Shown piece by piece: positions 2,762-64,000 of a stretch of 64,000 bases of DNA. Made by a program: the position numbers and the translations under genes. Each line of letters starts with the position of its first letter. Position 1 is the first letter of the stretch. This DNA comes from Octopus sinensis (Eukaryota), in contig NC_043007.1 in the NCBI RefSeq assembly GCF_006345805.1, positions 34,844,001 to 34,908,000 on the forward strand, given 5' to 3'. Under the pieces are notes generated by a model that searched no databases, was not told the origin of the DNA, and saw nothing but the letters and a program-made list of their open reading frames with translations.

Positions 2762-3153
2762 GATGCAGGACTGGCTGTGTGGTAAGTAACTTGCTAACCA
2801 ACCACATGGTTCCAGGTTCAGTCCCACTGTGTGGCATCTTGGGCAAGTGTCTTCTACTATAGCCCCGGGCTGACCAATGCCTTGTGAGTGGATTTGGTAG
2901 ACGGAAACTGAAAGAAGCCCGTCGTATATATGTATTTATATAAATATGCATTTGTGTGTCTGTTTGTCCCCTAGCATTGCTTGACAACCGATGCTGGTGT
3001 GTTTATGTCCCCGTTACTTAGCAGTTCGGCAAAAGAGACCGATAGAATAAGTACTGGGCTTACAAAAGAATAAGTCCCGGGGTCGAGTTGCTCGATTAAA
3101 GGCGGTGCTCCAGCATGGCCGCAGTCAAATGACTGAAACAAGTAAAAAAAGAG
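2762..3153 (+). mobile_element. tRNA-derived SINE family A (representative copy)
   Basis: A box TGGCTGTGTGG, B box GGTTCAGTCC, internal (TA)/(TG) tract, tail GACTGAAACAAGTAAAAGAG. Other copies at ~5079-5470(-), 10199-10610(-), 17875-18110(-), 18810-18965(-), 20377-20925(-), 22440-23100(-), 23625-24282(-), 38976-39383(-), 43925-44347(-), 45500-45850(+), 49885-50155(-), 58711-59100(+). Confidence 0.9.
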
Positions 3154-3234
3154 TATGTACATGTTTCATTCTCCTTGTCTTGACATTGTATCATAGCTGT
3201 AAACAAGTATCACTGTCAGACAAGTTATGTCATT

Positions 3235-3790
3235 TCATCATCATCACCATCATTGTTCAACGTCTGCTTTCCATGCTGGCATGGGTTGGACGATTTGACT
3301 GGGAACTGGCGAACCAGATGGCTGCACCAGGCTCCAATCTGATCTGGCAGAGTTTCTGCAACTGGATGCCCTTCCTAACGCCAACCACTCCGAGAGTGTA
3401 GTGGGTGCACAAGGGCCAGTCAGGCAGTACTGGCAATGGCCACGCTCAAATGGTGCTTTTTATGTGCCGCTTGCACAGGAGCCAGTCCAGCGGCACTGGC
3501 AACGAGCTTGCTCAAATGTTTTTTCACATGCCACCAGCACAAGTGCCAGTAAGGTGACACAGGTAACGATCATGTTCAAATGGTGTCTTTTACGTGCCAC
3601 CAGCACGGAGGCCAGCTTGTTGCTCTGGCAACGATCACGCTTGGATGGTACTCTTAGAGCTCCATTAGCACAGATCCCAGTCATCGAATTTGATTTCGAT
3701 TTCGATTTCACTTGCCTCAACAGGTCTTCGCAAACAGAGTTTAGTGCCCAATGAAGGAAAGGTACGCATAAATGGGCTGGTTACACCCCT
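3235..3790 (-). mobile_element. SINE family D, with (GAT)n tail and internal GGCACGTAAAAAGCACC modules (representative copy)
   Basis: Shared 3' part GGCGTTAGGAAGGGCATCCAG...CCAACCCATGCTAGCATGGAAAGCGGACGTTAAACGATGATG. Other copies at ~13330-14230(+), 15765-16085(+), 21820-22020(+), 30262-30870(+), 33060-33660(+), 44535-45085(-), 8875-9070(-). Confidence 0.85.
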
Positions 3791-4006
3791 GTCATTTGTT
3801 TCCAATAATTTACACAAACATGTCTGACAATTAGGAAATGCTACCTTGCTTGAAAACAGATGAGTGTTGTCAGGATGGGTATCCAGCCGTAGAAAATCTG
3901 CCTCAGTAAATTCTGTCTGACTCATGCAAGCCATGGAAAAGAGGGCATTAAAAACTGATGGTGATACAAACACACACACAGACACACACACACACACAGA
4001 CACACA

Positions 4007-4053
<47 letters not shown>

Positions 4054-4176
4054 TTTGCTGCCAGTTATGCAAACCACAGTATTTGAAGGTCAACTGATTT
4101 TATATTTTGACAAGACTAATAGTCAAAATATAAATAAAATTACTGCTACAACAACAAAAAAATAGCAACAAAAAAC

Positions 4177-4213
<37 letters not shown>

Positions 4214-4461
4214 GAGTAGCAGCAGTAGTAGTAGTAGTTCTTTCTATTAAGGTACAGTACGGTGGCCTGAAATTCAGGGGCAGGAGAAAGTCAGTTACAT
4301 CGACCCCAGTGCATAACTGGTATTTATTTCATTGACCCTGAAAGGATGGAAAGCAAAGTCAGCCTCAACAGATTTTGAACTCAGAATGTAAAGGTGGACA
4401 CAATGCTGCTAAGCATTTTGTCCTGCATGCCAGTGATTATGTCATTAATAATAATTCTTTA

Positions 4462-4795
4462 AGGCGCGTGGCTCAGTGGTTAGAGCATCGAGCTTACGAT
4501 CGTGAGGTTGTGAGCTCGAATCCTGGACCGGGCTGCGTGTTGTGTTCTTGAGCAAGACACTTTATTTCACGTTGCTCCAGTTCACTCAGCTGCAGAAATG
4601 AGTTGCGACGTCACAGGTGCCAAGCTGTATCGGCCCCTTTGCCTTTCCCTTGGACAACATCGGTGACGTGGAGAGGGGAGACCGGTATGCATGGGCGACT
4701 GCTGGTCTTCCATAAAACAACCTTGCCCAAACTTGTGCCTCAGAGGGTAACTCTCTAGGTGCAAACCCATGGTCAGTGTCTGACCGAAGGGGCTC
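4462..4795 (+). mobile_element. tRNA-derived SINE family C (representative copy)
   Basis: tRNA head GGCGCGTGGCTCAGTGGTTAGAGC...TCGAATCC followed by TTGTGTTCTTGAGCAAGACACT. Related copies at ~7287-7670(+), 18115-18440(-), 25400-25510(+), 29595-29900(-), 33830-34078(-), 52505-52755(+), 54470-54765(-). Confidence 0.85.
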
Positions 4796-11799: not shown

Positions 11800-12630
11800 C
11801 TTTATTGATTCAGTACTTCATTAGCTCATTCTCTGGTAACCTACTTCTTCATTGACTTATTCATTTGTCTATTCTCTCCTTCATTGACTCATTCCTTCAA
11901 CTCGCTCCATTGACCCACTCCATTCTTTCAATAACTCATGCCTTCATTGCCTCACTTCTTCGTCAACTCACTCCATTAACTCATTCCTTCATCAATTCAC
12001 TCCTTCATTGACTCATTCCTTCATCAACTCACTCCTTCAGCAACTCTCTCCATTGACTCACTTCTTCATCAACCCACTCCATTCCTTCATTGCCTCACTT
12101 CTTCATCAATTCAATCCATTGATTCATTCCTTCATCAGTTCACTCCTTCATTAAGTCATACTTTCATCAACTCACTCCTTCATCAACTTACTCTTTCAAC
12201 ATCTTGCTCATTCCTTCATCAACTCGCTCCATTGACTCACTTCTTCATTGACCCACTCCACTCCTTCAACAACTCATTCCTTCATTGTCTCACTCCTTCA
12301 TCATCTCGCTCCATTGACTCACTTCTTCGTCAACTCCATTAATTCATTCCTTCATCAATTCACTCCTTCATTAAGTCATACTTTCATCAACTCACTCCTT
12401 CATCAACTTGCTCCATTAATTTACTCCTTCGTCAACTCACTCCATTAACTCACCTCTTCACCAACTAACTTTTTCATTAATGCATTCCTTCATTGACTCG
12501 CTCTTTCATTGACTCCTTCCCTTATTGACTCACTCTTCACTGACTTATTCATTTATTGATTCCCTCAGTCATTAACTCATTCCATTCACTCACTGTTTTC
12601 ATTCACTTGGCTCCTTCATTGATTCATAAA
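11800..12630. repeat. Degenerate pyrimidine-rich minisatellite, unit ~TTCATTGACTCACTCC
   Basis: Recurring TTCATCAACTCACTCC and TTCATTGACTCA units. Confidence 0.85.
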
Positions 12631-13372
12631 CCTCAGATAGATCAAAGCTATCAGTACTTACTCAGAAGGAAAAACAATTCCAAAATTATTCACTTCATGG
12701 TATGAAGATGGTACTTATATAATTTTTTTTTGTCTGTATGTATTATATTTTTTACTTTATTTTTTCTTGTGTTTATATGTATTCTGTATTTTTCTTTTTT
12801 GCATCTTGTATATGTTGTTTTTATATGTTTATATGTTACCTTATATTTTATTATGCATTTTGTTTTCAAAATTTGTAAATGAAAACTGTGTGGAAAAAAC
12901 TCCCCCCCTTCATTTGGTTGAGCATTCAGCAGAATACCTTGTGATGTTTGGTGGCATCCACTTATATATATAAACAGGTGGTGGACCTCTTAAATCCCAT
13001 TCTAATCAATTTTGCCTTTCCTCTGCATCCTTGGGCAGTTAATAAAGTAAGAGTAACAAGTAAAATACTTGGGTCAAATATAATTTAATAATTTTTTTTA
13101 TCTCTTCCCAACTCCTTCCTGGCCACTCCTACCCTCTCTTCTATAATCTGTATAGCTATATAAAGGCGGCAAGCTGGCAGAAGCTTTAGCATGTCAGATA
13201 AAATGTTGTTCACCTGTATGTTCTGAGTTCAAATTCCGCCAAGGTCCACTTTGCCTTTCATCCTTTCCAGTCTGATAAAGGACCGAGATACCTGGTCATA
13301 CTCAAGAAAACCTATACCCTGCAGCTGAAGTGTTAAGACCAATCCTGCTGGTGGCATAAGCACTTGTGATTG

Positions 13373-14061
13373 TGTCACATAAAAGTGCTCATGCAGTGCC
13401 ACGTAAAAGCACCCATGTAGTGCCATGTAAAAGTGCTCATGCAGTCCCACACAAAATCGCCCATGCAGTGCCATGTAAAAGTGCCCATGCAGTGCCATGT
13501 AAAAGTGCTCATGCAGTGCCACATAAAAGCATCCATGCAAAGCCATGTAAAATCGCCCATACAGTGCCATGTAAAAGTGATCATGCAGTGCCATGTAAAA
13601 TCGCTCACTCAGTGCAATGTAAAAGCACCCATGTGGTGCCATGTAAAAGTGCTCATGCAGTGCCACGTAAAATCGCTCATGCTGTTCCATGTAAAATCGC
13701 CCATGTGGTGCCATGTAAAAGTGCTCATGCAGTGCCGCGTAAAATCGCCCATGTGGTGCCATGTAAAAGTGCTCATGCGATGCCATGTAAAATTGCCCAT
13801 GCAGTGCCTGTTTGGTGTGCCATGTAAAAGCACCCATGCAGTGCCATGTAAAAGAGCTCATGCAGTGCCATATAAAAGTGGCTATGTAGTGCCATGTAAA
13901 AGTGCCCATGTGACACCACTTAAAAGCGCCCATGTGGTACCATATGAAAGTGCCTCTGTGGGTCACATTGGAGCCATGTAAAAGCTCCCATACAGTGTCA
14001 CATAAAAGTGCCCACGCGATGTCACATAAAAATGCCTGTGCGGTGCCACATAAAAGCACCC
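13373..14061 (+). repeat. 24-bp minisatellite (GTGCCATGTAAAAGTGCTCATGCA)n, ~28 units, inside a family D SINE
   Basis: Clear periodicity that runs directly into the SINE D 3' body at ~14060. Explains the ORFs between 13229 and 14068. Confidence 0.9.
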
Positions 14062-29139: not shown

Positions 29140-29550
29140 GTGCCACAGAATGTACTGTTATATAGTGTCACATAGTACCACAGAACATAATGTTACATTG
29201 GTCCACAGAATATTATGTTACACAGTGCCACAGAATGTTGTGTTATATAAAGCTATAGCTAGTAGTGTTACAGAGTTCCACAGAATATAGTATCAAATAG
29301 TACAAGAGAGTATAATGTTACATAGTACCACAGAATATAGTGTTACATAGTGTCACAAAATGATACATAGTGCCACAGAATGTAATGTTACATACTGTCG
29401 CAGGATATAGTGTTGCATTGTTCCACAGAATATATGTTACATAGTGCCATAGAATATAGTGATAAATAGTGTCACAGAATGTAATGTTACATAGTGCCAC
29501 TAAATGTAGTTTTACATAGTCACAGACAGTAGTGTTACAAAGTGCCTGAG
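29140..29550. repeat. ~25-bp degenerate minisatellite (CATAGTGCCACAGAATATAGTGTTA)n
   Basis: Recurring CACAGAAT...GTTACATAGT. Confidence 0.85.
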
Positions 29551-47459: not shown

Positions 47460-49880
47460 TTCATTATCACCTTCTTTCAATTCTCTTTCCATTTCTTGCC
47501 AAGTGTCTTCCTGACACCTAAGGCAAAGAAATGCACTGTATCTATTTGTAGGCCATTAAAATAAACATATAAGATTGTTTATTTACAAAGTTATGTGATA
47601 GAGAAAAAGAGGAAGAAAGACAGAAGGAAAAAAAATAAAGAATTAAAAAGTAAACAAACAAAATAAACGGGAAAAAAAGAAAAGAAAAATTCACAGCAAC
47701 AATGCTCTTTTCAGTACATGTGACATACCAGTTAAGGCAATCTTTTGCACTTCCTGCAGGAATGGTAAGCCAGTGATCATTCTTAAATGATTTTCAGTTC
47801 CTTGTTTGATCATTCCAAATGCTCCTACAATCACTGGTATTGTAACCGTTTGAGATGCCACATCTTTTCGATTTCAATTAGCAAATCTTCATAGTTTCTG
47901 AGTTTATCAAATTCTTTTGCCTGGTCATGGTGTATGCATATGTTAATCAATAAACAGACTTTATTGTTTTGGTCTTTCACAACAATATCTGATTTATTTT
48001 TCTTTGATAGCCCTGTCTGTACATATTAAGAAGTCCCAAAGAATAGTTACATTTTCTCCTTCAGTTACATCCTGAGGGTGGTGCATGAAACATTTGTCAG
48101 CAGTTTTGATTTTATAATACCAACACATTATCCAATGTAGATAATGGCCAATTTTGTCATGCTTTGATTTGTACTTTACAGGTGCTAAAACCTTACATCA
48201 AGAGATTAGGTGGTCCACTGTTTCAATCCCATCGTTGCAAATTCAGCACTTTGGGTCTACACCATTTTTCATCACTTTGGCTTGATAGTTCTGTGTCAAT
48301 AAGTTCTGATCTTAAGCAGCCAAGATAAAGCCTTCACTCTCTGCCTTTAGCTCTGAACTCCATAGCCACTGGCAGGTGTGCTTCTGGTCTACATTAGTTC
48401 ACTTGCAACAGGCCTCATATTTGCCATGCAGAGGTTTTTGTTCCCAACTATCTGCCAATTGTTCAAATGCATTTTCCTTTGCTATTGATTTAACCTTCTT
48501 TGCAACTACAGTTGCTGCACTTTGATCGCGCTGTTCAACCTGAGTATTATGCATAAACTCACTTGAAAATTTTTTGCTCTCCTTCATAACAGAATGAAGC
48601 TTCTTACATTTTTTATGGTTTTCAACGAGCTTTAGCATCCAGTCGTTTCAAGATATTTTGCCAGTCCATTTGTAGTGGTTTTGCAGGAGATTTCAAATCG
48701 TATCAAGCCCTGACACCCTTGTGCTCTGGGTAGGTAAAAACAATCTGCGTCAACCTTTGAGTGGCGCATCTTACGGATTTTGCTGTCACTCTTCCTTATT
48801 TCGCTCATATTCCAGTTCAACATAGTGAAACTGTAAATAACAACCGGAACTGCTAAGGAATTTTTAGCTAACACCTTGTTGCATGCATTTAACTCATATT
48901 TTAAGACTGCCCGAACTCTCCTGTAACATTCCTGCCTCATCTTCTCTTTCATGCTTGCATACTGAATGCCAGATCCCTGATTAATTCCAAGGTATTTGTA
49001 AGTTTGTTTCTGCTCGAGTTCTTTTATGACTGTCAACATCCAACACCAGTGAATGTGAGATCTTCAATTTTCCTTTCTGGAAAGTGGCCTTGGCACATTT
49101 ATCAAGACCAAATTCCATCCCAATGTCATCACTAAATGCTTTCACTGTATGTAGTATTCCTTCAAGCTCATCATCGTTTTTACCAAAGAGTTTGAAGTCA
49201 TCCATATAAAATAGATGACTTATTTTCTTGTCGCCAATTTTATGCCCAAACCCTGTTCTGTTAAGTTCATTTGTAAGGGGTATTAGAGCTATGCAAAAAA
49301 TTAAAGGTGAAAGAAATTTACTTTGTAAAATGCCATAACTGATATTAATATTTTTTGTGGTCAGTACTCCATTAGTATGTTATAACTGGAGATTTGTATT
49401 CCACACTGACATGTTGTGCTTCAGGAAGTTTGAAATCACAGGAGAAATTTTGAAGGTGTCTAGCAATTTCAAGATCCATGAATGTGGTATGTTGTCAAAG
49501 TCCTTTTTATAATCAATCCAAGTGGAACTGAGATTTCTGTATTTGTTATGACAGTTCTCAAGGATCATGAGATTAATTAAAAGTTGGTCTTTGCATCCAT
49601 ATGTGCCTCATGTGCACATTTTTTGTTCAATAGGGAAAATATCATTCTGTTCCATAAATTTATATGTTTTCTCCACGAGGATGGATGTTAAAATTTTATA
49701 CGTTGTAGATAGACATGTTATGCACCAATAGTTTTGGGAAAATTTGGTTTCATTATTCTTGGGGAGTAGGTAAGTATTACCTCTTGCTAACCAATCAAGT
49801 GTTCTCGTAGGTTCTCTCATAATTTAATTGAATAACTAGACTAACAGGAGTGATACAAGCCAGAAATTTGGTATCCTATC
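47460..49880 (-). pseudogene. R4/Dong-clade non-LTR retrotransposon (RT, CCHC and RLE domains), 5'-truncated and frameshifted
   Basis: WLARGNTYLLPK, ITCLSTTYKILTSIL, WIDYKKDFDNIPHSWI, FYMDDFKLFGK, DIGMEFGLDKCA, YKYLGI, KPLHGKY, knuckle C*IC...ETVDHLIS*C, KSDIVVKD. The 3' end abuts (AAT)n. Confidence 0.92.
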
Positions 49881-55360: not shown

Positions 55361-55589
55361 TCTTCAGAATTGATATATTAATATCACCTCAGTAAATGCT
55401 TGTACATGCAAGGCTCTGCCCCATCTCCATTCTCTCTACCTCATCAAGCATTTCCTCCACACCTCATCCCCTAGCATTCATCGCTTCTCTAACTACCTTA
55501 ATCACCTGAGAGCAGAACAAGCACATGCTACACCCCCACCCTTTCTTTACCTCCCTCTTCTTTCTCCCACCCATAGAACCACTTCCAGT

Positions 55590-56175
55590 CTCTCTCTCCA
55601 ATTACACTAAAAATAAGATAAATAGTAATAAAAATATTTGGTTAATTCTTCCATACAGGAGACAAATTAAATCTAATCTCCCATTGCTGTTTCATGAAGC
55701 TATTATGAGGAATTTTGCAAAGAATTCTAGGTATTACTCTATTATCAATTCACATACGGTTAGAATTGGTTTTTCCAACACAAAAAATCTCTTACAAATT
55801 ATCTCTTCACATAATAACAACCTGTTAAATATTAATACATTTACTAATACTAACATTAACTTAGCTAATAACATCCATTCCTCTAGAAATATTGATAACA
55901 AGGTTATTGTATCTGAAGTCAATTCCAAAAGAATTAAGTTTATGTCAAGTAACTCTAAAATTAAAAATTCTATATACCAGTGTAAAATAAGTACCCATAA
56001 TAAAGTAAGATTTTACATTGGAAGCACGTCATTACAGTTATCTAAAAGAATTTCTATCCATTACTCAATATTTAGGGATAGAAATAAACGTAACAGTACA
56101 GGGCTCAGTAAATTAATTTGGGATCTAAAAGACCATAATGAACAATTTAATTTAGAATGGTTGATTCTCTCAATC
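55590..56175 (+). pseudogene. Penelope-like element C-terminal region with GIY-YIG endonuclease
   Basis: Open frame: IINSHTVRIGFSNTKNLLQIISSHN...SIYQCKI...FYIGSTSLQLSKRISIHYSIF...STGLSKLIWDLKD...LEWLIL. Confidence 0.88.
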
Positions 56176-56284
56176 TTGATAAGTGCTGGGGTTGAATTGT
56201 TCGACTAAAGGTGGTGCTCCAGCATGGCCACAGTCAAATCACTGAAACAAGTAAAAGAATAAAAGTATAAAAGAATATGTGTGC

Positions 56285-57934: not shown

Positions 57935-58215
57935 ATACATGTATATAAATTAGAGAAGAATCATCATTATATACTATTCAACAATGATATACTTAAATCA
58001 TACCATATAGAAAAAAATTAAAGATACGATGAAACATTTATTTAGAACTAAATAAAGTACAAAATAATAAATAAATAGTATATAATTAGTAAATAGACTA
58101 CACATTTATTTCTATTTAAATGTTTTATTGCATCTTAAATTTTTTTCTATATTGTATGATTTAATCATATCATTGTTGAATTGCTACATGGTGGTTCTCT
58201 GATTTATATACATAT
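57935..58215. repeat. Diverged AT-rich fold-back element (~115-bp arms) in (TA)n
   Basis: TTCAACAATGATAT..TTAAATCATAC..TATAGAAAAAAATT versus AATTTTTTTCTATA..GTATGATTTAA..ATATCATTGTTGAA. Confidence 0.75.
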
Positions 58216-59109
58216 ATATATGGCCTGCTCGCATAGCCAGCGGGGTGGTGTCATTCGAAGGCTAAAACAATGCGAAGCACATTGTGACCAGCGATGTGTA
58301 ACAACATCTGATGGTCTGATCGGTCACGTGATCACGTGATATATATATATGTATATGTATATATATACAGTTTATATGTGTGTGTGTATCATCTGTTTGT
58401 TTTCTACACCACCTGTCTTCGTCTTTTGTTTTTTTCGTGAATTCTTGCTATATATATGTGTGTGCATATATATAAATGTATGTATGTATATGTACATCTT
58501 TACATATCCATATATAGTTCTTCAGTAATTTTAATAAATCAATCGATTAAGTACTCTCTTTCATTATTCATAACTTCTTGGCAATGAATTCTTTCACTCC
58601 CTTGTCAATACCTGTTTAGTTTCATAAGACGCACATGATTAAATATAACACTAAAAACATTAAAATTATTAATTTGTATTTACAAATTTTAAGAAAAATG
58701 TTCAAATAATAGGCGCAGGAGTGGCTGTGTGGTAAGTAGCTTGCTAACCAACCACATGATTCCGGTTTCAGTCCCACTGCGTGGCATCTTGGGCAAGTGT
58801 CTTCTGCTATAGCCCCGGGCCGACCAATGCCTTGTGAGTGGATTTGGTAGACGGAAACTGAAAGAAGCCTGTCGTATATATGTATATATATATATATGTG
58901 TGTGTGTATGACAACCGATGCTTGACAACCGATGCTGGTGTGTTTACGTTCCCGTAACTTAGTGGTTCGGCAAAAGAGGCCGATAGAATAAGTACTGGGC
59001 TTACAAAGAATAAGTCCCGGGGTCGATTTGCTCGACTAAAGGCGGTGCTCCAGCATGGCTGCAGTCAAATGACTGAAACAAGTAAAAGAGTAAAAGAGAA
59101 AGAGTAAAT

Positions 59110-59632
59110 ATTCATTACAACCAGTTTACGTTGCACTAGGTGACAGAATTCTCAGGGTCTTGATCTGAGGAATTCATTGAGCCATGTTTTCACCTCCCTG
59201 TTGTTGCTGAACAAGACACCTCACAAACCGTTGGGGAGCAAGTGAAAGAGGTGATAATCTGAAAGCATTATATCTCAAGAATTTGGTGGATCTGATAGAA
59301 CTTCCTTCTCAGGCTCTTGAATGGCATCTCTATATATATAAACGGCAAAATGTCTGTCTGTGTGTGTGTCCTTTATACAAATCCACAATTTTTCAGTTAG
59401 ACGGCTCGCACTTTCTATGGTCATTCAAAACCGTCCAAGGGTGGTCGTGCACATCTTTACATTTCCCCAGTCACCCCACAAAGCCATTAAAAAATCAATA
59501 GAAGTGACTTTTTTGTGAATTTTCTATCAAAAGCCCAATCAAAATGACCGAAACTTGATACGCCAATTGAATGCCAGCTAGCTGTATGTGATTGGTCGGA
59601 GATTTGGACAGTACTCGCGTGTATATATATAT

Positions 59633-59691
<59 letters not shown>

Positions 59692-60402
59692 TATCTTTAC
59701 ATATACATATATACATACATATATAGTTCTTCAGTAATTTTAATAAATCAGTCATTTTAAGTATGACCCGTTGCCGGGTCATAGTGCTAGTTTTTCATAA
59801 AATTTGTGATGTGAAGGAAAGCATTGTGGTGTTGAAGACACATGTCTCACTGGTCAGGTTATTTTAGTTGGCTTTCCAAGTTTTTGGACATTATATCCAC
59901 TGAGTGAAAGTGGTGGGTGACAGTATCATGAGAACATTCCGTCTGTTGGGCCAATTCCTGAGTGAACTGGCATGGATCCTCATGGATAAAATTCTTCAAT
60001 TGGTCATCAATGAACAGAACAGGTCAGCTGTAAAGTGGAAAGTCTGTAAGGTTGAATTTTTCCACTTCGATGTGTCCAAACCATTTCTGTATAGTTCTTT
60101 TAATAATAGCATTTTCACCATACACATGACAAATGTCTCAAGTGGCTTTGTCAACATTGGAACTTTGGTAAAAAGCAATAAGAAGCAGATGTTGAAAATG
60201 TTCAAATTTTTAATACTTGACATTCCATTGTCATGTCTGAAAAGAGGAAAAATTTATTCAAATTTCAAAAACAATAAACAAATAATTATGGAGGAAGAAT
60301 ACCTCTAGGAAAAGAACGATAGAAAATACTATGATAGAAATATTTTTTGTTTTAATTTAAATAACATTGCAAAGAAAAGAACAAATTCTGACAACCCTAT
60401 AT
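59110..60402 (-). pseudogene. mariner transposase relic, internally deleted and split by Helitron H2
   Basis: Terminus TATAGGGTTGTCAG at ~60400. N-terminus DICHVYGENAIIKRTIQKWF...QFTQELA. C-terminus PPNS*DIMLSDYHLF...VKTWLNEF at 59160-59325. Confidence 0.8.
59327..59790 (+). mobile_element. Non-autonomous Helitron, family H2
   Basis: A|TC start, hairpin TATGACCCG ttgc CGGGTCATA, ends CTAG|T. Confidence 0.85.
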
Positions 60403-60468
60403 ATGTGTGTGTATGTGTGCGTCTGTGTGTGTGTGTATGTGTTATATGTGTTATATTTATATATGTTT

Positions 60469-60502
<34 letters not shown>

Positions 60503-60580
60503 AAACATATATAAATATATACATATATAAATATATATATATATATATATACATATATAAATATATACATATATAAATAT

Positions 60581-60630
<50 letters not shown>

Positions 60631-60774
60631 AGAGCAATAAAGATTCAAGTTAATTTAAAAAAATTTACTTGAATATGGTACCTAACTTAGATGCACCAAA
60701 AAAAACCATACTGATTTAACAATACAGTAATGTGGGGTGATTATAAGCGAGAAAGAAGCAACAAGAATGGATAG

Positions 60775-60869
60775 GTATTTAGTACGATCGTTCATACAAG
60801 GACAGGTTTTATTAAAAGTTGCAAAGATTACAGCATATAAACGAGTCCCGTACTCATCAGCTAAAATAC
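60775..60869 (-). ncRNA. Type I hammerhead motif, left-arm copy (GAA instead of GAAA)
   Basis: Reverse complement of 62898-62993 lacking one A of the conserved GAAA. Confidence 0.6.
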
Positions 60870-62897
60870 ATGTAAGTTCTCTAGACATCCTAGTGTTTGA
60901 GGCTATACTCATGAAGTAATGTAGATAATTAAACAGATTTCTAAAGTTCATTAAAGTTCTTTAAAGATGATGTACAGTCTTATCACAGAATTTTAAAAAA
61001 GTTTTGATAGCATCACAGAGAAGGTGACCTAATCCATATGAATTTCCATAGATATGATGAGGGATTATATACTCACAGAAGACAAATTATCCATTGTTAA
61101 TTACAACGAGGTGGGTCTCAATTCCTGCTTATTAGCATTACAGAGAGGGTGAATTAATCCTTTGTATGTATGCACAGATTCCAATGGTGTAGATGTAAAT
61201 TTCCAGAGAAATGGAGATGAATTTCATATTCACAGGCGATAAATTTTACAATGGTTGAACACAATGAGGTAGGTATCAATCCTTGTTATATGATTAGGTG
61301 TTTGCCACATTAATCACATTACTGCTATTCACAAGAGGCTGTAGCTATTTAACTCTTAAAGGCTGAAGGGCTTACTAGATCGGCCAAGAATAGAGAAGGG
61401 AATAGAAGAAAAGAGAGAAAATAATGGAGGAGGGAGCAAAAAGGGGGGGGGAAGGGGGACTAAAAGAGAAGAGAAAAGGAAACAGAGAATAAGAAGAAGA
61501 AAAAGAAAAAAGAGAAAAGAGAAAGAAATAGGGAAAGAAGGGAAAAAAAAGAAAAGGAAAAAAAGAGGGTTCTAGTTATACAGAAGAGTTCGTAGACTGT
61601 AAGTCTGGTTTTAATCAGAGGTTAATTGAGGCTTTATTTAATTTCAAACTCACAATTTTTAAATTCTTAATTTTAAATCTTAATTGTAATATTTAATTTT
61701 AATTCCTAACTTAATCTAATTTAAATAGCATAACTCTAATAAATTATAATTAGTTATTGTAGCCCCATAATTCTATTTCATAATTAAATAAATAAGGCTA
61801 TTCCCTCGGTGATAATATGATTATCTTCATTATGATAGACAATCCCCTAACACCTTGTAAATGATCTTATAAGATTTGACCTGTAGTCAGTCAATGTATG
61901 AATAATAACGACAACTCCTTAAGACAATAAAATGAATAAATTAAATAAGTAAATTTTTAATGACTTTTTGATAAGATTATACTTAGATTTTCCTAATGTA
62001 TTTTCTGGTGATTTTAGCATCTGACCCCTTAACCCCTGACTGTGTTATCTCTTTAGATTCTCTTTAAACTCATAGCTGATTTCAACAGCAATAAATTAAC
62101 GGTTTACTGGTCAAAGAATAATATTCTCCTCTAGTTCCTAGATGCCTGTTGATTAAAACCAGACTTACAGTCTACGAACTCTTCTGTATAACTAGAACCC
62201 TCTTTTTTTCCTTTTCTTTTTTTTCCCTTCTTTCCCTATTTCTTTCTCTTTTCTCTTTTTTCTTTTTCTTCTTCTTATTCTCTGTTTCCTTTTCTCTTCT
62301 CTTTTAGTCCCCCTCCCCCCCCCTTTTTGCTCCCTCCTCCATTATTTTCTCTCTTTTCTTCTATTCCCTTCTCTATTCTTGGCCGATCTAGTAAGCCCTT
62401 CAGCCTTTAAGAGTTAAATAGCTACAGCCTCTTGTGAATAGCAGTAATGTGATTAATGTGGCAAACACCTAATCATATAACAAGGATTGATACCTACCTC
62501 ATTGTGTTCAACCATTGTAAAATTTATCGCCTGTGAATATGAAATTCATCTCCATTTCTCTGGAAATTTACATCTACACCATTGGAATCTGTGCATACAT
62601 ACAAAGGATTAATTCACCCTCTCTGTAATGCTAATAAGCAGGAATTGAGACCCACCTCGTTGTAATTAACAATGGATAAATTTGTCTTCTGTGAGTATAT
62701 AATCCCTCATCATATCTATGGAAATTCATATGGATTAGGTCACCTTCTCTGTGATGCTATCAAAACTTTTTTAAAATTCTGTGATAAGACTGTACATCAT
62801 CTTTAAAGAACTTTAATGAACTTTAGAAATCTGTTTAATTATCTACATTACTTCATGAGTATAGCCTCAAACACTAGGATGTCTAGAGAACTTACAT

Positions 62898-62993
62898 GTA
62901 TTTTAGCTGATGAGTACGGGACTCGTTTATATGCTGTAATCTTTGCAACTTTTAATAAAACCTGTCCTTGTATGAAACGATCGTACTAAATAC
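62898..62993 (+). ncRNA. Type I hammerhead ribozyme motif
   Basis: GTATTTTAG-CTGATGA-GTACGGGAC...GTCCTTGTAT-GAAA-CGATCG-TA-CTAAATAC. Palindromic helix III ACGATCGT. Predicted cleavage after A62985. Confidence 0.82.
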
Positions 62994-63067
62994 CTATCCA
63001 TTCTTGTTGCTTCTTTCTCGCGTATATATATATATATTATATATATATATATATGTATATATGAATG

Positions 63068-63119
<52 letters not shown>

Positions 63120-63125
<6 letters not shown>

Positions 63126-63420
63126 AAAGTGGTCTTTTGCCACTGTTGTATCTGTCTTTTGACAATGGTGTCACTCTGACAGATATTGTTTTATTCCAAA
63201 ATTGTTGATAGAATGGTTCTATCTGGCACTGTACAACCTCCAGTCATACAATATTAATATCCTTGACGTCCACTCAGTATCACAGTATAATTACTATATC
63301 AGCACAAACACGACTATCAACACAGTCTACACATACTGTCAACCTTCCAACCTTTTTCCTCAGTCGATTGTCTATTTATAATGGCTGGCTACTACCACTT
63401 TTTATATAAATAAGGATAAG
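63120..63420 (-). mobile_element. Solo LTR related to the 39856-41036 element
   Basis: Minus strand AAAAAGTGGTAG..CCAGCCATTATAAATAGA ... CCACTTTACAACA. Confidence 0.7.
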
Positions 63421-63639
63421 ATCGTTAATTTAAATATCGATCTTATCAAGTGGCCAGCATGGAAATAAAAACCTTCAAAGGTAATAATTATTATTAAAAT
63501 TATAATTTAGGGTATCTAAGAGATACCTCCACGCTGGAAATAGTAGCCAAAACTTGACTCTAAAACCACATTAAATGTTCATACAGCACCAGGAGAGAAG
63601 ACAAAAGGACAAAATAAACTACCAAAAAATTACTGGATA

Positions 63640-63697
63640 ATTCCAGATCCCGGATTTCTGGCTTTGCATAAGAAATGCTTTGCCTCATCAGTGGAAT
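63640..63697 (-). ncRNA. Type I hammerhead ribozyme motif (variant)
   Basis: Minus strand ATTCCA-CTGATGA-GGC AAA GCAT ttctt ATGC AAA GCC-A-GAAA-TCCGGGA-TC-TGGAAT. Perfect 6-bp stem I. Confidence 0.72.
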
Positions 63698-64000
63698 ATA
63701 CACAGATAATAGCATAAATGCACATATATACATATAGCATACGAATACTTACATATACGAACGTATACATATATATATATATGCACGTATGCACACAACC
63801 AGTTTAAATTGCCCACCTATAACTCCTTGTGCAATATGGTCAAAACAGCACCGCAGTAAATACAATGATGAAATAAATATAAAATTTATATAAAGTTTTG
63901 GCTGCTATTTCCAGTGTGGCATCAAATTGTTGGAAATTGATGGAAAGTTACAGAGAGAGCCAGAGTCAAACTAATTAGGGAGAGAGTTAGTCTAGATGTG

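Follow-up and report, generated by a model that had tools for sequence, protein, structure and literature searches.

A head-to-head pair of truncated Penelope-like element copies in the Octopus sinensis genome, and a one-tail rule among the inverted insertions of its family

For Penelope-like elements (PLEs), 5'-truncated copies in inverted orientation, with one end bearing a tail, have been described (PMC8557442; PMC3846280), and opposite-strand ribozyme pairs in truncated copies have been noted (PMC4209133). PMC8557442 calls the origin of the tandem and inverted structures an open problem, gives the defining features of the Hydra clade in its section 11 and lists Hydra-1_Obim as a Hydra family of Octopus bimaculoides (Craig et al., 2021). 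In O. vulgaris, recently active Penelope-like families have been counted (PMC13282606). Biochemistry close to our case is that of a Poseidon PLE, for which reverse transcription is reported to start internally at two tail-bounding sites and to be primed on both strands, a dimer being predicted (PMC11167929); since the start sites in vitro showed no difference between the strands, these data by themselves do not predict that an insertion should use one site of each kind.

The window analysed here, a stretch of 64,000 nucleotides, contains an inverted repeat for which a preliminary description had given dimensions that direct alignment bears out throughout. The arms at 60747–61617 (871 bp) and 62150–63021 (872 bp) differ by three 1-nt indels, each inside a homopolymer run, and by no substitution; the spacer between them (61618–62149) measures 532 bp, the left arm extends outward by 118 bp (60629–60746), (TA)n stands on either side (60452–60628 and 63023–63119), and there is no recognisable ORF, the largest ATG-independent frame in the element reaching at most 92 aa. 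The Penelope-like origin suspected in that description can be substantiated, the arms being 98.7–99.1% identical to the 3' end of a full-length natural copy (L031), and its recent activity likewise, with copies 97–99% identical. Judged by these alignments, the element almost certainly consists of two 5'-truncated 3' UTR copies of a 4.6-kb protein-coding PLE, joined head to head in (TA)n.

The shorter copy, on the minus strand (60629–61617), ends at the outer of two 3' end points of the family, and the longer one, on the plus strand (61622–63021), ends at the inner. Because they correspond to about 3067–4470 (longer copy) and, reversed, about 3595–4589 (shorter copy) of the L031 unit, both are pure 3' UTR. 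The longer copy begins about 170 nt past the ORF stop, and its first 528 nt are what had been called the spacer; by alignment, the spacer is just the part by which one copy exceeds the other. The 118 bp of the extension represent the PLE "tail", which lies on the minus strand between the inner and the outer end point, is contiguous with the arm in other copies and is found on one arm per inverted pair. The copies meet at a head-to-head junction of 4 extra nt (61618–61621), which belong to the family sequence of neither side. The (TA)n tracts, to which no strand is assigned, are the two halves of the target array, within which a target-site duplication would be masked; elsewhere, too, the ends of the family abut (TA)n. 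A G directly precedes (TA)n at most ends in loci L051–L088 and also in the window (63022 and 60629). At the inner site this G is non-templated in 23 of 37 ends; slippage, or a bias towards dC as the first nucleotide, may be the cause.

The preliminary description had further proposed a non-autonomous ribozyme retroelement, and this part has to be given up. That a self-standing 2.4-kb unit of two arms and a spacer spreads as such would agree with its being non-coding, young and ribozyme-bearing. However, a search of the organism's own genome (2.72 Gb) returned 96 matches from the 40 candidates scored out of 1,630, and among these the window alone matched the 2,393-nt query end to end. The 2.4-kb unit itself is unrepeated, and 28 of the 29 other best loci run upstream into family sequence that leads to a frame for reverse transcriptase (RT) and GIY-YIG endonuclease. 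The window junction occurs in none of the 29, and we found neither a non-coding unit that is repeated nor direct tandems with a ribozyme in each unit, as a retrozyme or other non-autonomous element would have. Such a unit is therefore extremely improbable. Arm and spacer lengths differ at every locus examined, and to judge from these alignments arms and spacer are by-products of truncation. The 29th locus (L021) stops at the same base as the window (61622) but carries a different, shorter inverted arm, so that this truncation base is shared by two different insertions; other truncation points recur near unit position 4244 and at 4081–4149.

The parent has the insertion structures characteristic of PLEs, namely partial tandems (pLTR), an inverted 5'-truncated copy and a tail at one end. 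In L031 the unit measures 4,581 nt and is preceded by a partial copy (pLTR); its ATG is found at unit position 58 and its stop at 2900. In two other natural copies the frame is open to the stop over 845 codons (L036) and 814 codons (L046), and both show YRDD of the RT and VIY..YIG..R..H..E of a C-terminal GIY-YIG domain. At the start of the L036 frame, the antisense ribozyme region of an inverted stub lies in frame with the truncated ORF, which results in a chimeric open frame. Sequence searches of Pfam and PDB did not name any domain of this protein, so that RT and endonuclease are identified by motifs and alignment. RWK and DKT are present in L031 (RRIRWKTY and PADKTGN), the CxCx5C linker reads CKCRIKSKC, CxxC is CQLC and CxH is CVH; CCHH is absent, only a single Cys standing between VIY and YIG. 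A canonical hammerhead lies near the 3' end, and insertion is into (TA)n. By these motifs the parent is a Hydra-clade PLE, the named Hydra references having been compared by eye. A Naiad element was considered and rejected, the endonuclease being C-terminal here. A length below 3 kb, which is a descriptive rather than diagnostic feature of the clade, is exceeded by the 4,581 nt of L031 because of asparagine-rich inserts and an extended 3' UTR.

Of 8,000 candidates scored, 51 were homologs of the protein, the best at 43% identity; two homologs from O. sinensis match parts of the query at 68% and 86% identity. Fourteen homologs align throughout save at the two asparagine-rich inserts, which are in frame in L036 and L046 (about 93 and 145 aa, with 39% and 24% N) and absent from these 14. 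When variants common to at least 3 of 39 copies are counted, the RT core has 18 synonymous and 7 non-synonymous ones (pN/pS 0.11) and the endonuclease 8 and 7 (pN/pS 0.22), against pN/pS of 1.25 and 0.45 for the inserts in the same 39 copies. This pattern of variants points to purifying selection on the RT core and the endonuclease. The start site has 19 exact matches genome-wide, and none of 20 start sites examined opens a frame from ATG to stop, the longest frame being 657 codons; assembly indel errors may account for the absence of such copies. The window also contains, at 55510–56208 on the plus strand, a 232-codon thumb/endonuclease fragment of another Hydra-like PLE family, 38% identical to the element protein over 126 aa and devoid of the linker cysteines, and, at 48984–49379 on the minus strand, an RT fragment from a different retroelement (Pfam RVT_1, E 6.6e-09). 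Minisatellite arrays, degenerate and built of units of 16/32, 24 and 25 nt, lie at 11843–12618, 13372–14056 and 29160–29546.

The family is abundant. Genome-wide, 2,372 exact matches were counted for a 20-mer of the ribozyme, 2,146 for a downstream 20-mer, 914 for a 24-mer of the young subfamily and 457 for a tail 22-mer, the reversed probes giving 0 in all four cases; the ratio of ribozyme to tail probe is 914:457. That the downstream matches outnumber those of the young-subfamily probe was considered as a sign of ends made by ribozyme cleavage, and this was rejected because a second subfamily explains the surplus. Three subfamilies can be distinguished, whose identity to L031 is about 97%, 92% and 80%. 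Contigs of two runs with two other organism labels (X3 and X5) contain the family 3' UTR at 95% identity or more, so that the family is common to close relatives. For the analysis of ends we used all 38 loci on contig C1 that carry the young probe, 37 further ones from the downstream-probe matches listed and, because these first 75 loci had been chosen with probes lying across or behind the hammerhead cut, 18 additional loci found solely with an upstream probe.

Because the tail is unusually long, the two end points, 118 nt apart, are easy to score. The 132 arm ends of the 75 loci of contig C1 are all accounted for by two sites, 67 being at the inner and 65 at the outer one, and both sites carry a TATA-like template motif. 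Inverted pairs are present at 56 of the 75 loci (34 of the first 38), and each of the 56 has one tailed and one tail-less arm; the 18 further loci contributed 12 pairs, counted by eye, all with one arm of each kind, which brings the total to 68/68. In 17 of 56 pairs the 5' truncations of the two arms lie no more than 10 nt apart, where permutation leads one to expect 1.8 such pairs (maximum 8 in 20,000), although palindromic microhomologies can inflate this symmetry. The longer arm is the tail-less one in 22 pairs and the tailed one in 17. At the junctions there is microhomology or there are a few extra bases, some junctions being palindromic or locally duplicated. At one locus (L096, 558–9659) a tailed and a tail-less copy, both full-length, are joined head to head into a palindrome of 9 kb that is nearly complete. 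Substitutions private to a locus occur in both arms in 39 cases and in one arm only in 60; two of the 39 belong to the window. When the arms of the window were compared with 34 others, none of these came as near to either arm as its partner (nearest 0.35%, median 1.65%), though over all loci the partner arm is nearest or tied in only 19 of 31 cases.

These data also bear on the question of whether the inversion could be a long-read chimera or an assembly artefact. The arms of the window differ purely by homopolymer indels, and the junction at 61617–61622 is bridged by none of the 32 short-read contig pieces listed, which may, however, come from other individuals; both facts would suit an artefact. 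Against it, the inversion halts at the element boundaries and leaves the flanks unmirrored, and the tail asymmetry holds in 68/68 pairs, including those of older subfamilies with diverged arms. We therefore regard an artefact as scarcely credible. Taken together, it is very likely that the window shows truncated head-to-head PLE copies, which were likely made in a single insertion event with two reverse-transcription starts, and the strict rule of one long and one short end likely records how such elements insert.

For this event we consider a mechanism with two primers to be probable. To judge from the end pattern, the shared variants and the biochemistry of the Poseidon element, the endonuclease would nick both strands of (TA)n, and on an uncut read-through RNA each DNA 3' end would pair with the short TATA-like motif of one site, inner or outer, so that reverse transcription would start once from each. 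Both cDNAs would stop early and then be joined via microhomology or a few added bases, and a protein dimer on a single RNA would give rise to the one-of-each rule. Weighing against this mechanism are the 60 private substitutions found in one arm only and a locus (L152) whose 42-nt inverted stub falls short of a 3' end. We found neither a published account of double priming nor a count of the one-tail rule in the open-access literature.

The shared variants and the symmetric truncation would also fit with fold-back copying or with later gene conversion. In a fold-back, for which a related self-priming idea exists for the rotifer Penelope (PMC3846280), the cDNA started at the outer site would fold at its end and be copied into a second arm that becomes fixed at the inner site, and a later deletion at the centre of the palindrome would leave the spacer. 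The 17 near-perfect palindromes among 56 pairs, the 39 shared private variants, the palindromic or locally duplicated junctions and the inverted stub at L152 are all in keeping with such a course. In its plain form, however, it cannot give a tail-less arm that exceeds the tailed one, as is the case in 22 of 56 pairs, with a surplus of as much as 3.4 kb, and it would need a secondary deletion in every one of them; moreover, the non-templated G at the inner end (23/37) resembles a slip in priming more than an end made by cutting and annealing. A fold-back, although the chief alternative, is therefore rather unlikely. The two-primer mechanism might even be general, and we tentatively propose, with somewhat more doubt than confidence, that a single protein dimer on a single uncut RNA produces every head-to-head insertion of the family, one subunit priming at the inner site and its partner at the outer, 118 nt apart and from opposite target strands. 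If so, the 68/68 one-tail rule, the coincident truncations and the shared variants would be the record of an obligatory asymmetric double priming, double priming would explain the inverted repeats of PLEs, and the conserved ribozyme would act at another step.

As to the ribozyme, the preliminary description had placed a hammerhead in each arm, which stands for the right arm and fails for the left. The right arm contains a type I hammerhead on the plus strand (62902–62990; predicted cut 62985/62986) with a 5-bp stem I, CUGAUGA, a 60-nt stem-loop II, GAAA and a palindromic stem III, and thus the complete core (CUGANGA, GAAA and UH) with three stems. In the left arm (60778–60865, minus strand) one indel removes an A of the invariant GAAA, between 60790 and 60791, so that the core is short of one base and, as written, broken. 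When the entire 64-kb window was scanned on either strand with a descriptor, the right-arm hammerhead was the sole match; Rfam at E<=1 returned no hammerhead for 58000–64000, only chance microsatellite matches. The broken variant has 30 exact matches genome-wide as compared with 914 for the intact form, and the intact core with the extra base is the majority form in the short-read contigs of 4/4 runs. For these reasons the loss of the A is probably a sequencing error in a homopolymer; a real inactivating mutation is less likely.

That the hammerhead is conserved among copies, on which the preliminary description depended, can be affirmed. Counting variants common to at least 4 of 131 copies, there is none in the 13 core and 10 stem I positions, and there are 13 in loop II, at 11 of 41 positions; the one-sided P for this contrast is about 0.004 in a hand calculation, the copies not being independent of one another. 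In the same 131 copies one stem III pair changes across subfamilies between G-C (53), G-U (53) and A-U (16), stem III being palindromic in the G-C and A-U forms, and two changes in stem II retain the pair as G-U. The distribution of variants indicates that the ribozyme is kept by selection and that the stem III change is compensatory. The minimum-energy fold computed for the monomer differs from the active fold (z −1.17), and through the palindromic stem III a dimer is predicted at −12.0 kcal/mol. In read-through RNA, the sense ribozyme would be predicted to pair with its own antisense copy and not to cleave, since this pairing is computed at −162.7 kcal/mol and the hammerhead fold at −8.9 kcal/mol.

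It might be thought that hammerhead cleavage makes the ends of the element. This was rejected: none of the 132 arm ends at the 75 loci lies at the cut, nor does any among the 18 loci found solely with the upstream probe, and the two 3' end points are 36 and 154 nt behind it. The absence of cut-site ends agrees with the finding for PAc, the Poseidon element, that cleavage is protein-dependent and dispensable for insertion (PMC11167929).

There remains the reading as a functional hairpin RNA gene, whose read-through transcript would form an 870-bp duplex for ADAR/Dicer or for the regulation of host transcripts. The duplex would follow if the locus is transcribed, and antisense small RNAs are known from rotifer Penelope copies (PMC3846280); on the other hand, no promoter or host gene was identified in the window, where the long frames are repeats, and the locus is one of hundreds of similar young loci, so that this function is quite improbable. 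No report of PLE hairpins in cephalopod editing was found in the open-access literature. The family as a whole would supply of the order of a thousand long inverted repeats, which are potential sources of dsRNA if transcribed. The locus, as one of hundreds of dead truncated insertions, matters little in itself. What matters is that the octopus genome harbours a high-copy, recently active Hydra-type PLE whose one-tail rule and correlated truncation make a quantitative prediction fit for the existing in vitro PLE assay (PMC11167929).

Compared with described systems, the family shares with the Hydra clade the C-terminal GIY-YIG, RWK, DKT, the CxCx5C linker, CxxC and CxH, the lack of CCHH, the 3'-end hammerhead and the (TA)n target, and its ribozyme layout matches the one given for Hydra ribozymes in a supplementary table of PMC8557442. 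For Penelope-13_HM, from the Hydra list of the same paper, a 5'-truncated inverted copy with ribozymes on both strands is described, as found here. The octopus family differs from the clade in its 3' UTR of about 1.7 kb, its two asparagine-rich ORF inserts and its 60-nt stem-loop II; the clade is described there as generally below 3 kb with a tail of 30–40 bp, as opposed to 4.6 kb and 118 nt here. Its ribozyme and protein, compared by eye, differ from those of Hydra-1_Obim, and it is therefore a separate family. PAc from Anolis carolinensis (Frangieh et al., 2024; PMC11167929) is similar in its two tail-bounding internal RT start sites, its AT-rich target and ends that are not marked by the hammerhead cut; it belongs, however, to another clade, its start sites lie within the ORF whereas here they lie upstream of the ATG in a tandem transcript, and a one-of-each rule is not reported in the part of that paper considered. 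The Penelope of Adineta vaga (Arkhipova et al., 2013; PMC3846280) has head-to-head inverted pLTRs with an optional tail on one of them, palindromic junctions and N-rich ORF inserts in common with the octopus family, but is of low copy number, whereas here the ribozyme copies run into the thousands and belong to three or more subfamilies. The metazoan non-LTR retrozymes (10.64898/2026.07.22.740005) resemble the locus in being non-coding and PLE-derived and in having a type I hammerhead, but their units, each with its ribozyme, form direct tandem arrays, whereas the octopus locus is an inverted pair of truncated copies. Measured against these systems, the locus itself is ordinary and the family is probably a new one within a known clade.
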